The translations under genes were made by a program, and so were the position numbers. A stretch of DNA of 64,000 bases, taken from positions 43,641 to 107,640 of the IMG/VR virus record IMGVR_UViG_3300031760_000015; one strand, given 5' to 3'. The first letter of the stretch is position 1; each line of letters opens with the position of its first letter. The stretch is from a virus. Its lineage: Duplodnaviria; Heunggongvirae; Uroviricota; Caudoviricetes. Shown piece by piece: positions 30,640 to 60,616 of this stretch. The notes beneath the pieces are model-generated. The model saw only the letters and a list, made by a program, of their open reading frames with translations. It did not search any database and was not told where the DNA came from.

Positions 30640-30726
30640 GCGTCGGTATGCCTAGCAGCGAGAGCACTTGGCTGTAGACCAAGTACGTTAGAAACACCGT
30701 GGGTGCAACTCCTACCCGGCGCACCA
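30640..30726 (+). tRNA. tRNA-Tyr(GTA), type II
   Basis: anticodon arm CTTGG-CTGTAGA-CCAAG, long variable arm, CCA. Confidence 0.65.
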
Positions 30727-34376: not shown

Positions 34377-34414
34377 GGGCGTCTAGCACAGTTGGTCAGT
34401 GCCTTCGGCTCATA
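34377..34414 (+). tRNA. tRNA-Met(CAT) 5' exon (acceptor, D-arm, anticodon stem + CTCATA)
   Basis: GGGCGTC-TA-GCACAGTTGGTCAGTGC-C-TTCGG-CTCATA; 3' partner at 34869-34904. Confidence 0.55.
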
Positions 34415-34442
34415 TCAAGCAAAATCATATCTATAAATTATT

Positions 34443-34853
34443 ATGGATACAAATATTAAAGGTATTATTACCGAATTAAAATGTAAAACTTATTTTTTAG
34501 AATTGGGATATACTGTCTCAACTCCAGAAAATCCAACGAGGTATGATTTTATTTTAGACACTGGAAATAAACTTATAAAAATTCAGGTTAAAACTTGTAC
34601 TTCAGATGGAGAAAAATTAAGTTTTGCTACTTGTTCTAGTCATTTTGTAAATGGAAAAGTTACTCATACTCATTATCAAAATGATAATATTGATTATTTT
34701 TGTACTTGGTATAATAATGAATGTTATCTAATTCCTGTATCAGAGTGTGGGAAAACTGAAAAAAAATTACGATTAGTTCCCACACGAAATGGACAAGTAA
34801 AAAAAATTAGTTTTGCTAAGGATTATATTGCTAAGGAGGTTTTAAATAGATAA
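34443..34853 (+). CDS. PD-(D/E)XK-like homing endonuclease within the tRNA-Met intervening sequence
   Basis: YDFILD ... KIQVKT motifs; paralog of 50608 gene; located between the tRNA halves. Confidence 0.45.
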   Translation: MDTNIKGIITELKCKTYFLELGYTVSTPENPTRYDFILDTGNKLIKIQVKTCTSDGEKLSFATCSSHFVNGKVTHTHYQNDNIDYFCTWYNNECYLIPVSECGKTEKKLRLVPTRNGQVKKISFAKDYIAKEVLNR

Positions 34854-34868
34854 GTGAGCTAGATATGA

Positions 34869-34904
34869 ACCGAATGGTCTTGGGTTCGAGCCCCAAGGCG
34901 CCCA
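34869..34904 (+). tRNA. tRNA-Met(CAT) 3' exon (A38, anticodon stem CCGAA, variable loop, T-arm, acceptor GGCGCCC)
   Basis: T-arm TTGGGTTCGAGCCCCAA; acceptor complementary to 34377-34383; flanking GATATGA pairs with the CTCATATC end of exon 1. Confidence 0.55.
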
Positions 34905-34926
34905 TTTAATAAAAAGGAGTTATATA

Positions 34927-47384: not shown

Positions 47385-47954
47385 GTGATTATTATGAAAA
47401 AATGGGAAAGGTTTTCTGATGAAGAGTTGCAAGAAATTGCTTATAGAAGTTCTTGCTTAGGAGACTACGCTAAAAATTTAGGCTATTCTATAAAAGGTAC
47501 TAGTGGTAATAGTGCTCGTTCTTCTGTAAAAGCAATGATTGAACTTAAACAAATAAATGTAATGCATTTTAAAGGTTATAAAGATAAATCTACACAATTT
47601 AATTATAAACATGTTAATGAAAATTATAATGTTAGTAATTTATTTATAGAAAATAGCTTCGCAGAAAGAAAACTTATTAGACGTTATTTATTAGCATATA
47701 ATTTAATTCCATATAAATGTGCTTTTTGTGGTAATGAAGGGGAATGGCGAGGAAAGCAGATTAGTTTAGAATTAGACCATATTAATGGCAAGCATAATGA
47801 TAATAGATTAGAAAATCTTCGTTGGCTTTGTCCAAATTGTCACGCTACTACTCCTACATACTGCGGTAAAAATATAACTTATCAATGTGAACAAGCCCTG
47901 TTAGCTCAGTCGGTAGAGCATTCGGCTGGTCAGATAGAAACAAGTCCTAGTTGA
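47385..47954 (+). CDS. HNH homing endonuclease
   Basis: CAFCG ... DHINGKHNDNRLENLRWLCPNCH; 3' end overlaps tRNA-Thr exon 1. Confidence 0.7.
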   Translation: MIIMKKWERFSDEELQEIAYRSSCLGDYAKNLGYSIKGTSGNSARSSVKAMIELKQINVMHFKGYKDKSTQFNYKHVNENYNVSNLFIENSFAERKLIRRYLLAYNLIPYKCAFCGNEGEWRGKQISLELDHINGKHNDNRLENLRWLCPNCHATTPTYCGKNITYQCEQALLAQSVEHSAGQIETSPS

Positions 47955-48020
47955 GTGCAAGACTCAAATCTGGCACCATTAACCGAAGTGTCGGCAGTTC
48001 AAGTCTGTCACAGGGCGCCA
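47895..48020 (+). tRNA. tRNA-Thr(GGT) interrupted by a 50-nt insert in the anticodon loop (insert 47931-47980, between nt 36 and 37)
   Basis: acceptor GCCCTGT/ACAGGGC, D-arm GCTCAGTCGGTAGAGC, anticodon stem TTCGG/CCGAA, T-arm GGCAGTTCAAGTCTGTC, CCA; insert folds into CAGAT/ATCTG and TTGAGT/ACTCAA helices. Confidence 0.55.
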
Positions 48021-49221: not shown

Positions 49222-49313
49222 TAAGCCTTTACAGCAATTTTTAAATGGTTAAATTATTTTGTTTAAAGTACAGAGTAAGAGAAGGTTCGAGCCCTTCATA
49301 ATTAAAAGGCTTA
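49222..49313 (+). ncRNA. E5: 9-bp stem (TAAGCCTTT/AAAGGCTTA) + ACAGCAATTT motif element containing a T-arm-like hairpin (GAAGGTTCGAGCCCTTC)
   Basis: motif 49231-49240; T-arm-like 49281-49297. Confidence 0.45.
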
Positions 49314-50191: not shown

Positions 50192-50551
50192 ATGAATGAC
50201 GCAAATTATGAATGGCTTTTTCTAATTCCTGAAGGTTGGGTACAGATTGCTCAACAAATGATTGAAGAATGTGAAGCTATCAATCCTTCTTATCAAATTG
50301 AAGATTTAAAAGAAAAATGGGGAGAATTGCGCGTTGTTAGTTATATTAAAGACTACAATGATACTGAATGGCTTCTTCCCGCCTCCAATGATAAAGAAAT
50401 AGAAGAAATAGAAAATAAATATATAGAACAAAGTCGTAAAACTTGTTGCATTTGCGGCAAATCTGCTACGAAAATATCTACTGGTTGGATTTGTCCTTAT
50501 TGTGATGATTGCGGAGATAAGGATGAGAGGTTTTATAAAAGGTTTAAATAA
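50192..50551 (+). CDS. Cys-rich (CCICG ... CPYCDDCG) hypothetical protein
   Basis: ORF track. Confidence 0.5.
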   Translation: MNDANYEWLFLIPEGWVQIAQQMIEECEAINPSYQIEDLKEKWGELRVVSYIKDYNDTEWLLPASNDKEIEEIENKYIEQSRKTCCICGKSATKISTGWICPYCDDCGDKDERFYKRFK

Positions 50552-50587
50552 GGCGGGTTAAGCCTAATGGTAAGGCAGGAGATTGCT
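50552..50587 (+). tRNA. tRNA-Ser(GCT) 5' exon
   Basis: GGCGGGT-TA-AGCCTAATGGTAAGGC-A-GGAGA-TTGCT; partner exon at 51251-51309. Confidence 0.5.
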
Positions 50588-50607
50588 TTTTTACTTAATT
50601 AAACTTA

Positions 50608-51225
50608 ATGGTAGAAACAAAGATTAAAGGGCTTACGACAGAATTATTATGTCAGGCATATCTTACTTCTTTAGGATATAATATTTCTATTCCTATTGGC
50701 GAAGATTGTAGATATGATATGATTCTGGATTTAAATGGAAAACTTTTGCGTATACAAGTTAAAACTTGTCAAGAAGAAGAAAATAGAATATCTTTTCGTA
50801 CTTGTAGTATTACAACATCCGGAAAAGAAAATATTATTCATAAATATACTAAAGACCAAATTGATTTAATAGCTACTTATTATAATGACCAATGTTATTT
50901 AATTCCAATTGAAGAATGTGAAGGAATGAAAGGTAGAAGTTTAGTTTTTTCACCAGAAAAAACAAATGCTATTAAACCTTTATATATTAAAGATTATACA
51001 GCAGAAATCATTTTAAATAAAATCCTTAATAATGAACAAATTAAAAAGGAGGATGATTTTATTGTGTATCAATATGATTTAAATAATAACTTACTTAATC
51101 AATTTTCTTCATACGCAGAAGCAGGAACTTCCATTAACAAACCTTCTAGTCATATAAGTCAATGTGCTAGAGGATTAAGAAAAACCGCATATGGTTTTAT
51201 TTGGTCATTAACATTAAAGGATTAA
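50608..51225 (+). CDS. PD-(D/E)XK-like homing endonuclease with NUMOD-like C-terminus, inside the tRNA-Ser intervening sequence
   Basis: YDMILD ... RIQVKT; C-terminal ...CARGLRKTAYGFIWS; paralog of 34443 gene. Confidence 0.45.
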   Translation: MVETKIKGLTTELLCQAYLTSLGYNISIPIGEDCRYDMILDLNGKLLRIQVKTCQEEENRISFRTCSITTSGKENIIHKYTKDQIDLIATYYNDQCYLIPIEECEGMKGRSLVFSPEKTNAIKPLYIKDYTAEIILNKILNNEQIKKEDDFIVYQYDLNNNLLNQFSSYAEAGTSINKPSSHISQCARGLRKTAYGFIWSLTLKD

Positions 51226-51250
51226 GAAAGAAAAAAAGCAATCTCCCAGT

Positions 51251-51309
51251 AATCGACGTATGTCGGTGTTTCGGTTCAAGTCCGAAACCCGTCGCCAATT
51301 GTGGACTGT
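51251..51309 (+). tRNA. tRNA-Ser(GCT) 3' exon (AA, anticodon stem TCTCC, variable-arm hairpin CGAC-GTAT-GTCG, T-arm, acceptor ACCCGTC, G, CCA)
   Basis: acceptor complementary to 50552-50558; intron-proximal AAAAGCAA pairs with TTGCTTTT of exon 1. Confidence 0.5.
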
Positions 51310-51773
51310 TGGCTTAGAAGCAGCCATTCAGCTAAGGAGTTCTTAATTTCTCTATTAGTGCAAAATGTATTGTGGGCTACATTTGTTATAATGACCCACG
51401 AGTATGATGTGCTGATAGATAATAGAAATATGAGATTTGGCGTAATAGCACACCACAAATATTGAGCTGGTCAGTGTAGCGTGCAGAAAGTTCAAGAAAA
51501 TAAACACGGGGTTACTACACAATAGAATTAGAGCGTTGGAACGGGCAGCCACGAGTCTTAGTAACTGATGGAAGAATGTCAACTTCCCTAATTCTATATA
51601 ATGCGGTGGCGGAATAGGTAGACGCATAGACCGTAAGAGCCTGTGAAATTACGGATAACAACTTGCTCATGTAAGGTGCAAATCCTTACCCGCATAAATA
51701 GACTTGCCCACGCCTCTTAATAATGCGTACCTTGGGGAGCGCGTGTTCCGCGACGTTTAACTGCGGGTTATAT

Positions 51774-59400: not shown

Positions 59401-60616
59401 TGTGATTTATTTTATTGATACAAGCGCCGTATTGGAAGGCGCTTTATCTTTATACGACCATAGTCATATTTATTTAAGCCCATTGGTATTAATGGAATTA
59501 GAAAATTTAAAAACTAATGGTAATGAACATATTAAATTTTGCGCGCGAGAAGCTATTCGTACAATTATTCAATCAGAAATTGCTATGACAACAATTTCCC
59601 AAAGAAAAATTTTAAATGTATTGAAAAAAAATAATTGTTTAATGGACATTAACGATCATAAAATGATCTGTGAAGCTTTAATCTTGAATAATTATAATGA
59701 AGTTATTTTTATAACAAGTGATTGCGCTCAATTATTATTTGCTCGTACTTTAGGATTAAAAACTAATTATTTTATTCCTAAAGAAGAAAAAAAGCAGGAA
59801 GAATATTGCGGTTGGAAAAAATATACTCCATCTGAAGATGAATTAATTTCTTTATATTCTAAACCAAATGAAAATGTTTTAAACGCAAATATTAATGAAT
59901 ATTGTGAAATTTATGAGGAAAAAGAATTAAAAGATGTTCTTCGTTGGACTGGAGAAAAATATACTTCATTAAAATGGTCTAATTTTAAAAATAATTTTTT
60001 AAATAAAAAAATTTCTCCATTAAATTTAGAACAAAAAATGGCTTTTGATTTATTACAAAATAATGATATTGCTGTAAAAATACTTGTTGGATATCCTGGC
60101 ACTGGTAAAGATTACCTAATGTTACTTCATGCTTTAGATTTAATTCAAAAAGGAATTATGGATAAAATTATATTCGTAAGAAATCTTGTTCCATTTAAAG
60201 ACGCCCCTGAAATTGGTTATCTTGCAGGAGATTTACAACAAAAAATTTCTTGGGGACTTGGACCATTAAGTGGTATTCTTGGAGAAGAAGGATTAAATCA
60301 ATATATTGATGAAGGTATAATTGAAGCTGTTAATTTAGGTTTTATTCGTGGCTGTTCTTGGGATAAAACAATTATTTATGTTTCAGAAGGACAAAATATT
60401 ACTGGCGGCGGCTATAAATTATTAATTAGTAGATGCGGTCAAGGCAGTCAATTATGGGTTAATGGAGATATTTTACAAACTGATAGCAAAGAATTTGAAA
60501 AAAATAATGGACTATTAAGACTAAGTAATTCATTAAAAAATAATCCACTTGCAGGAACTGTTAAATTAATTAAAACAGAACGTAGTCCTGTAGCGGAATT
60601 AGCAAAAATTATCTAA
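59381..60616 (+). CDS. phoH: PhoH-like ATPase with N-terminal PIN-like domain (atypical Walker A GYPGTGKD)
   Basis: FIDTSAVLEG N-terminus; GTGK P-loop; phage phoH-like architecture. Confidence 0.45.
   Translation: MVRKVINVIYFIDTSAVLEGALSLYDHSHIYLSPLVLMELENLKTNGNEHIKFCAREAIRTIIQSEIAMTTISQRKILNVLKKNNCLMDINDHKMICEALILNNYNEVIFITSDCAQLLFARTLGLKTNYFIPKEEKKQEEYCGWKKYTPSEDELISLYSKPNENVLNANINEYCEIYEEKELKDVLRWTGEKYTSLKWSNFKNNFLNKKISPLNLEQKMAFDLLQNNDIAVKILVGYPGTGKDYLMLLHALDLIQKGIMDKIIFVRNLVPFKDAPEIGYLAGDLQQKISWGLGPLSGILGEEGLNQYIDEGIIEAVNLGFIRGCSWDKTIIYVSEGQNITGGGYKLLISRCGQGSQLWVNGDILQTDSKEFEKNNGLLRLSNSLKNNPLAGTVKLIKTERSPVAELAKII

Follow-up and report, generated by a model that had tools for sequence, protein, structure and literature searches.

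How can a tRNA whose anticodon loop is interrupted by an endonuclease gene, with neither a detectable ribozyme nor the room for one, still be produced by the phage that encodes it? The question is raised by a tRNA-Ser(GCT) gene on a 64,000-nucleotide (nt) stretch of an uncultured phage (IMG/VR record IMGVR_UViG_3300031760_000015, positions 43,641 to 107,640), the whole of which is referred to here as the window; all coordinates count from its first base, and the parts of the two split tRNA genes and the RNA ligase gene described below lie on the plus strand. The gene is split between nt 36 and 37 of the tRNA by a 652-nt insert (50588-51239), which is nearly all open reading frame (ORF) and whose last three bases pair with the anticodon. 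The reading that we favour, with a probability of roughly 60%, is that the insert is a mobile intron lacking a ribozyme, for which proteins would cut the RNA on either side of the triplet formed by anticodon and anti-anticodon, before an RNA ligase would seal the exons.

ARAGORN was run without introns, with introns allowed and on exons joined in silico. In its default mode, which allows no introns, the program calls no tRNA at 50552; once introns are permitted, it names 50552-51297 a Gly(GCC) tRNA with an intron of 652 nt, the junction being placed one base early. Joining 50552-50587 to 51240-51297 yields a 94-nt type II tRNA-Ser(GCT), which bears out the claim, made from the sequence-only reading of this DNA, that such a gene is split here by a homing-endonuclease gene; the same reading extended the gene to 51309 and gave the insert 663 nt, and both values were too large. 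The 5′ exon (nt 1-36, 50552-50587) ends in GGAGA-TT-GCT, and the 3′ exon (51240-51297) comprises A37 and A38, TCTCC, a long variable arm, the T arm, ACCCGTC, G73 and an encoded CCA. Together they form an acceptor stem (GGCGGGT/ACCCGTC), a D stem of three base pairs (bp), an anticodon stem (GGAGA/TCTCC) with the loop TTGCTAA, a variable-arm hairpin (CGAC-GTAT-GTCG) and a T arm (TTCGG/CCGAA), and thereby display the long variable arm, G73, 7-nt GCT loop, U33 and purine 37 of a tRNA-Ser(GCT).

The position of the junction follows from the anticodon. A 7-nt loop can be built from the flanks in four ways, and the 36/37 junction, which had been proposed from the sequence alone, is the only one that gives a serine anticodon; it also leaves a purine at position 37 in all relatives. 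The joined exons would read GGAGATTGCT followed by AATCTCC, or, over a longer span, GGCAGGAGATTGCT followed by AATCTCCCAGTAATCG. Three other placements were rejected: the 35/36 junction of ARAGORN would put the wrong anticodon, GCC of glycine, on a serine body; a 38/39 junction, suggested by the alignment of related loci L082 and L083, would leave Ser(GCT) and Ser(TGA) with U or C as nt 37; and in a mirror model, with the exons joined at 33/34 so that the anti-anticodon serves as anticodon, bodies of Ser, Thr and Met type would bear alanine or other anticodons. The 169-kilobase (kb) IMG/VR phage L102 has an orthologous tRNA-Ser(GCT) that is uninterrupted and has the loop TTGCTAA; it is collinear with the joined exons, matches the window gene in D loop, T arm and downstream flank, and differs in its stems by compensatory changes. 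An exact search of IMG/VR for the intron-less junction AGGAGATTGCTAATCTCCCAG returned no match.

Outside the ORF, the insert has 20 non-coding nt upstream and 14 downstream. The ORF (50608-51225) encodes a 205-residue homing endonuclease, recognised by profile and structure matches, with an N-terminal PD-(D/E)XK domain of the I-Ssp6803I family (PF11645; E 4e-24, 85.6 bits against a cut-off of 26.1) and a C-terminal NUMOD1 domain (E 2e-7). Its sole significant relative in the PDB is 2OST (E 5e-6), which we take to be I-Ssp6803I, encoded in the group I intron of Synechocystis tRNA-fMet. An alignment of 11 homologues shows no variation at E12, D37, D41, Q50 or K52, residues that include the catalytic pattern E...D...QxK. 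The protein is indeed a paralogue of the endonuclease encoded at 34443-34853, as had been noticed earlier (43% identity, E 2e-35). That second ORF belongs to a sister element, identified with ARAGORN and Pfam, in which a tRNA-Met(CAT) gene (34377-34905) is likewise split at 36/37, by a 454-nt insert (34414-34867); its product has 136 residues (411 nt of coding sequence) and PF11645 without NUMOD1, and the ends of the insert follow the same helix logic, with CAT/ATG plus ATC/GAT. The architecture of the Met(CAT) element recurs, near-identical, at related loci L120, L121, L140 and L141. The 205-residue ORF has 116 homologues at E<=1e-5; an IMG/VR scan with the full-length protein recovered mostly unrelated NUMOD1 domains.

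The ends of the insert form a continuous helix with the anticodon stem, as the sequence-only reading had proposed, its length being 15 bp and not the 13 bp first given. The 5′ strand (50578-50592; from the fold, the repeat finder and junction comparison) consists of the stem GGAGA, the loop bases TT, the anticodon GCT and the TTTTT with which the insert starts, and the 3′ strand (51232-51246; from the fold and the repeat finder) consists of the insert bases AAAAA, the anti-anticodon AGC (51237-51239), A37, A38 and TCTCC. The final AGC of the insert is thus predicted to pair with the anticodon, and the A-run before it with the first five U's of the insert. A second helix of 6 bp, seen in the sequence and by the repeat finder, would pair CTTAAT (50594-50599) with ATTAAG (51221-51226), which holds the stop codon of the ORF, and the arms returned by the repeat finder (50578-50602 and 51222-51246) are 25 nt long and 88% complementary. 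When the whole 746-nt precursor is folded, the minimum-energy structure (z = -7.1) retains the 15-bp anticodon helix as well as the acceptor, D, variable and T arms. In this model the 15-bp rod holds the two exon ends together while the remainder of the tRNA folds normally.

The same arrangement is found across a widespread family of inserts. DNA around a sample of the 116 homologues was fetched and 24 junctions were curated, which show at least nine tRNA species to be interrupted by the endonuclease in their anticodon loops: Ser(GCT), Ser(TGA), Thr(TGT), Lys(TTT), Met(CAT), His(GTG), Pro(TGG), Val(TAC) and GTT-anticodon tRNAs. In every case the gene lies within a phage tRNA array, that of an SPbeta-like phage included. 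A junction at 36/37 is compatible with all 24, each having U33 and a purine at 37. Across the nine anticodon classes the final triplet of the insert complements the resident anticodon (AGC, TCA, ACA, AAA, ATG, CAC, CTG with wobbles, and GTA), and the bases that precede this triplet pair with the first bases of the insert. When nine positions were scored, namely nt 34-36 and the first six insert bases, a mean of 7.96 of 9 were paired (minimum 7), compared with 3.92 of 9 in controls in which the 3′ strand was slid by 3-39 nt. Positions in the helix core that depart from Watson-Crick pairing are G·U in 13 cases and A·C in 2, an excess of G·U that argues for selection acting on the helix as RNA and not on an inverted repeat in the DNA. 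Neither junction shows a conserved base across the family, which suggests that whatever recognises the site reads shape or distance from the tRNA body.

Some members depart from this pattern in detail. Five homologous Thr(TGT) introns (L095, L098, L106, L107 and L109) end in TCA, not ACA, and so have a conserved U36·U mismatch at the 5′ junction, where three other Thr(TGT) introns pair perfectly. At L119 (1248-1799) and L123 (1435-1970) the inserts end in AGC, as in Ser(GCT), and face a GTT anticodon through a G·U pair.

Among the curated junctions the exons are intact: all 24 of the 24 exon pairs, when joined at 36/37, are called as ordinary tRNAs. In seven interrupted Thr(TGT) genes joined in silico, whose endonucleases and anticodon stems have diverged, 99.3% of stem cells are paired and compensatory double changes occur in 15 of 21 stem pairs, a number that none of 500 shuffles reached. 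In the arrays examined, of 19-29 tRNAs each, the interrupted gene is the sole copy of its anticodon that was seen. Mobility is evident from two near-identical phages, one of which (L083) has a 488-nt insert in Pro(TGG) where the other (L082) has an intact gene; presence and absence are clean, and two nearby differences in the 3′ exon resemble co-conversion. This comparison concerns a member of the family, and at the Ser locus the uninterrupted counterpart is only the more distant orthologue in L102.

The endonuclease also occurs free-standing. Close relatives adjoin intact tRNA-Ser(GCT) genes at L102, L103, L108 and L110, with 52-69% identity to the window endonuclease over the N-terminal PD-(D/E)XK domain; in the closest IMG/VR relative (L102, 1501-2252, 69% over that domain) the stop codon overlaps the 5′ end of the orthologous tRNA-Ser(GCT). 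One enzyme lineage thus alternates between residence beside a tRNA gene and residence inside it. Inspection of the flanks of the free-standing copies, where the repeat finder was not run, revealed no obvious helix, and the helix would therefore be tied to residence inside the tRNA.

A two-level scheme can be proposed for a ribozyme-less mobile intron of this kind. At the DNA level, judging from the behaviour of the family, the PD-(D/E)XK and NUMOD1 enzyme would cut intron-less tRNA genes of co-infecting related phages in the anticodon stem-loop region, and the element would be copied in by repair. At the RNA level, two cuts, one after nt 36 and one before nt 37, would free the endonuclease mRNA, and an RNA ligase would join U36 to A37. 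On each strand of the 3-bp anticodon/anti-anticodon helix the cut would fall at the 3′ side, giving a 3-nt 3′ stagger with pseudo-twofold symmetry, a geometry that suggests a dimeric nuclease. Candidates for this nuclease are a host or phage enzyme, such as the PIN-PhoH and RNase H-like proteins of the window, or the intron's own protein. For sealing, the local candidate is a phage RNA ligase (41746-42396, a Pfam match to PF09414), and a host ligase may serve elsewhere. RNase III leaves a 2-nt stagger and EndA needs bulges; RNase III was rejected as the sole nuclease, its 2-nt stagger giving an anticodon loop of 6 or 8 nt. Precise excision at the DNA level through the 15-bp inverted repeats was likewise rejected, as both exon ends would receive GCT 3′ overhangs, which are not complementary, and it is also disfavoured by the large excess of G·U over A·C.

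Several points weigh against this scheme. We infer splicing itself, the cut positions, the end chemistry and the roles of nuclease and ligase from sequence comparison. The ligase family was found in only one (3300021399_000003) of about 15 large endonuclease-bearing contigs, in a search of limited sensitivity, and is therefore not a universal partner, and we know of no nuclease that cuts a perfect RNA helix with a 3-nt 3′ stagger. The intact exons could reflect recent homing and not long-term function. At L111 (about 1470-1960) an endonuclease gene and a helix (CTGCT-TT-GTC... / ...GAC-AA-AGCAG) lie between two intact tRNAs, the 'exons' being an Asp-type anticodon stem-loop only; either an ectopic copy carried the stem with it, or a tRNA decayed until its helix was all that remained, and the helix may therefore also, or only, serve the element itself. 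At L092 the tRNA around the homologue is decayed, and at L119 a Ser-type body (long variable arm, G73) bears the anticodon GTT; the GTT cases at L119 and L123 might be explained by mutation of the gene, by recoding or by an intron that recently switched host.

Two of these loci, L111 and L092, also support the strongest of the alternatives, namely that the insert is a selfish insertion that is never spliced, the endonuclease gene having inactivated a dispensable phage tRNA and the helix serving the element and not the tRNA, for instance as a processing or stability structure for an endonuclease mRNA cut from a polycistronic tRNA transcript. Besides L111, with its endonuclease and helix between intact tRNAs, and the decayed tRNA of L092, it can draw on the frequent dispensability of phage tRNAs, on the occurrence of the same endonuclease as a free-standing gene beside tRNA genes and on the want of an assigned splicing enzyme. 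Against it, a helix that stabilises an mRNA need not use the anticodon, nor re-adapt to nine anticodon classes, and the exons remain cloverleaf-competent in 24 of 24 cases, with abundant compensatory change, although the endonucleases have diverged to 40-70% identity. That the interrupted gene is the only one seen with its anticodon in arrays of 19-29 tRNAs, and that the free-standing copies have no obvious flanking helix on inspection (no repeat-finder run), likewise tell against it. Selfish insertion is regarded as less probable than splicing by proteins.

A more specific form of the protein-spliced intron, which we consider improbable though worth stating, is a self-contained one, in which the intron-encoded PD-(D/E)XK enzyme itself would make both RNA cuts and any RNA ligase that accepts 3′-OH and 5′-phosphate ends would finish the reaction. 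The helix GGAGAUUGCU / AGCAAUCUCC would then be an RNA copy of the left half-site and centre of the pseudo-palindromic DNA target of the enzyme, and the RNA would be cut with the same twofold geometry, and with the same 5′-phosphate and 3′-OH ends, as the DNA. I-Ssp6803I is said to cut DNA on the two sides of the anticodon with a 3-nt 3′ overhang.

Among known introns, the closest by protein and insertion site is the group I intron in tRNA-fMet of Synechocystis PCC 6803, which shares the endonuclease family (PF11645) and the anticodon-loop site and which reportedly follows the anticodon directly (between CAU and A), like the sister Met(CAT) element of the window. The Synechocystis intron is a self-splicing ribozyme of several hundred structured bases that uses a 5′ internal guide sequence, whereas the window insert has no detectable ribozyme and pairs its 3′ end with the anticodon. 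Cryptic self-splicing, by a degenerate group I or other ribozyme within the coding sequence or by a ribozyme supplied in trans from another phage intron, was nevertheless considered; its attractions are the known association of this endonuclease family with the Synechocystis intron (the 2OST match), the U that precedes the 5′ junction here and the presence of a true group I intron in tRNA-Leu(TAA) of a related phage (L113). An Rfam scan of 50400-51700 at E<=10 gave no match to group I (RF00028), group II or small-ribozyme models, and 11 related loci with this type of insert gave no intron or ribozyme match, in agreement with the earlier suggestion that this is not a group I intron; in the same scan the positive control, a twelfth locus, was detected (L113 329-642, Intron_gpI RF00028, 61.5 bits). 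The genuine intron of L113 sits at 34/35 of its tRNA. Nor does the family have the hallmarks of group I introns, a U at -1 paired to an internal guide and a terminal intron G, since the base at -1 of the 5′ junction is U here and U, A, G or C across the 24 relatives, and the insert, which ends in C here and in A, C or G among its relatives, has as its final base simply the complement of nt 34. With no internal guide sequence near the 5′ end, 20 plus 14 nt outside a protein-constrained ORF, and a sister insert of 454 nt that holds a 411-nt ORF, a hidden ribozyme is very improbable.

The sequence-only reading had likened the insert to archaeal or nanoarchaeal split-tRNA logic, and here the host matters. 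The window, part of an uncultured phage, runs from tail and other structural genes through a GH25 lysin with peptidoglycan-binding and SH3 domains to a 25-kb array of about 29 tRNA genes with small ORFs between them. A DNA search of GenBank phages matched individual tRNAs only and found no close or cultured relative there; the relatives are IMG/VR contigs of 170-180 kb and metagenome contigs. Metagenome-assembled genomes with homologues of the 50608-51225 ORF are named Lachnospiraceae, Clostridia (sheep rumen) and Acutalibacteraceae, and a GTDB scan for endonuclease homologues returned two loci only. The host is taken to be a bacterium of the class Clostridia, not an archaeon, because of the peptidoglycan lysin in the window and the relatives in Clostridia genomes.

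An archaeal-type intron, in which the helix would be a relaxed bulge-helix-bulge (BHB) substrate cut by an EndA-like enzyme to leave 2′,3′-cyclic phosphate and 5′-OH ends for sealing by RtcB, is just as hard to credit, for although pairing of intron and anticodon also extends the stem in pre-tRNAs of archaea and eukaryotes, archaea have BHB introns that carry endonucleases and RtcB is common in bacteria, both splice sites here lie within a perfect 15-bp helix without 3-nt bulges, the cuts are 3 bp apart instead of 4 bp with bulges, the host is bacterial, and a Pfam scan of 22 window proteins found no tRNA-intron endonuclease domain. The tRNA is not trans-split either, since its halves are on one strand, 652 nt apart, with no terminator between them; no terminator-like site was found inside the insert, and promoter-like sites are at chance level. 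As first put, the archaeal analogy is therefore not supported, given the lack of a BHB, the single strand without a terminator and the bacterial (Clostridia) phage, and the resemblance is confined to one idea, that intron-anticodon pairing extends the anticodon stem.

By RNA logic, the closest systems are nonetheless the protein-spliced introns of archaea and eukaryotes. BHB introns, including endonuclease-encoding ones in archaeal rRNA, and eukaryal tRNA introns share with the window insert the lack of a ribozyme, the pairing with the anticodon and the need for a ligase, and BHB introns may carry a homing endonuclease as passenger. They differ in that the window junctions lie in a continuous helix at 36/37 and not at the canonical 37/38, in a bacterial virus, and with a PD-(D/E)XK enzyme in place of LAGLIDADG; we know of no EndA in bacterial viruses. 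The split tRNAs of Nanoarchaeum equitans are also parted in the anticodon-loop region and joined by complementary flanks, yet their halves are separate genes joined in trans through a BHB, whereas those of the window are 652 nt apart on one strand. Free-standing homing endonucleases of phage tRNA clusters, of which T4 SegB is reportedly one, likewise target the tRNA genes of related phages, whereas the window gene has moved into the tRNA itself, and its newly gained ends pair with the anticodon. The intervening sequences of bacterial 23S rRNA excised by RNase III, and rRNA processing stalks, offer an end helix, a host double-strand RNase and no ribozyme, but their fragments are not religated, while the anticodon loop of a tRNA has to be closed again with precision, and RNase III with its 2-nt stagger does not suit the junctions required. 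Resealing of a broken anticodon loop by a phage RNA ligase is known from T4 Pnkp/Rnl1, and the window encodes an RNA ligase; the T4 system, in contrast, repairs damage inflicted by the host, and the window ligase is of the PF09414 family, with no kinase-phosphatase among the proteins scanned.

A second kind of anticodon-loop insert occurs in the same arrays. These mini-inserts are 48-74 nt long and contain no ORF; they fold like a tRNA, some as a minihelix and others as a full cloverleaf, and have an acceptor-like stem of 7 bp, a hairpin resembling the T arm, and NCCA at the 3′ end. In the window one such insert (47929-47978, 50 nt, with the stem GTCAGAT/ATCTGGC and a hairpin, then A-CCA) lies within the tRNA gene at 47895-48020, which ARAGORN calls Thr(GGT) when intact and which becomes tRNA-Asn(GTT) upon exact removal of the insert. 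Exact removal, from the first base of the stem through CCA, makes sensible tRNAs of eight 'odd' genes, the one in the window and seven in related phages, and comparison of L082 with L083 provides an unambiguous presence and absence of a 49-nt mini-insert within tRNA-Trp. The mini-inserts are possibly excised by RNase P and a 3′-end tRNA nuclease, which would leave 3′-OH and 5′-phosphate exon ends fit for an ATP-dependent RNA ligase. An HNH homing-endonuclease ORF (47394-47954) overlaps with its 3′ end the 5′ half of the Asn tRNA and its mini-insert.

The tRNA region of the window holds further features. A gene set resembling RNA repair (37605-42396) includes PTH2, a Ro/TROVE-like vWA RNA-binding protein (phrog_850) and the PF09414 RNA ligase; weak Y-RNA-like (YrlA) matches occur at related loci L081, L088 and L120. 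The protein with PIN and PhoH domains is encoded farther on, at 59492-60616, and the window also encodes the RNase H-like protein. A GIY-YIG and NUMOD1 ORF (43971-44612) directly follows tRNA-Ala. Straight after the tRNA-Ser gene lies a 476-nt non-coding stretch (51298-51773), the start of which (GTGGACTGTTGGCTTAGAAGCAGCCA...) is conserved in L102 and within which a skipping-rope RNA match (51524-51595) stays below the gathering score, with 29.3 bits where 36.7 are required; at 43192-43303 a drum RNA is complete (70.8 bits). Two tRNA-like features stand apart: an Rfam tRNA match at 30640-30723 (38 bits), absent from the ARAGORN calls, and an odd 'tRNA-Phe(AAA)' of 71 nt at 49235-49305. Related loci L104, L105 and L140 carry candidate suppressor tRNAs (anticodons TTA and CTA) and tRNA-Sec-like matches, which may point to stop-codon recoding in some relatives.

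Bacterial and viral tRNA introns are known as self-splicing ribozymes, almost all of group I, and protein-spliced tRNA introns are deemed a trait of archaea and eukaryotes. In 2014, a review of group I introns in bacteria noted that phage introns to date were all in protein-coding genes, despite the many phage tRNA genes (PMC3984707), and a 2026 survey treated bacterial tRNA introns as group I or group II (PMC13011429). A full-text literature search found no later report and no description of ribozyme-less phage tRNA inserts. The insert in tRNA-Ser(GCT) would be a novel form of mobile, endonuclease-carrying tRNA intron, with a real chance of representing a new splicing class.

Even if the inserts are never spliced, they are homing endonucleases that colonise tRNA genes with a conserved RNA structure. 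If they are spliced as proposed, a pathway of RNA cutting and joining not yet described would operate in Clostridia or their phages, and it would offer compact, programmable RNA-processing parts. It would also explain 'missing' isoacceptors in phage arrays and expose systematic mis-annotation, of which the calls of Gly(GCC) for the split Ser gene and Thr(GGT) for the neighbouring Asn gene are examples. The family would moreover provide a concrete intermediate for the old proposal that protein-spliced introns arose from group I introns that lost their ribozyme, and, should the protein-only reading be true, these elements together with the mini-inserts would amount to ribozyme-free tRNA splicing in bacteria and their phages, a living transition from group I to protein-spliced introns.

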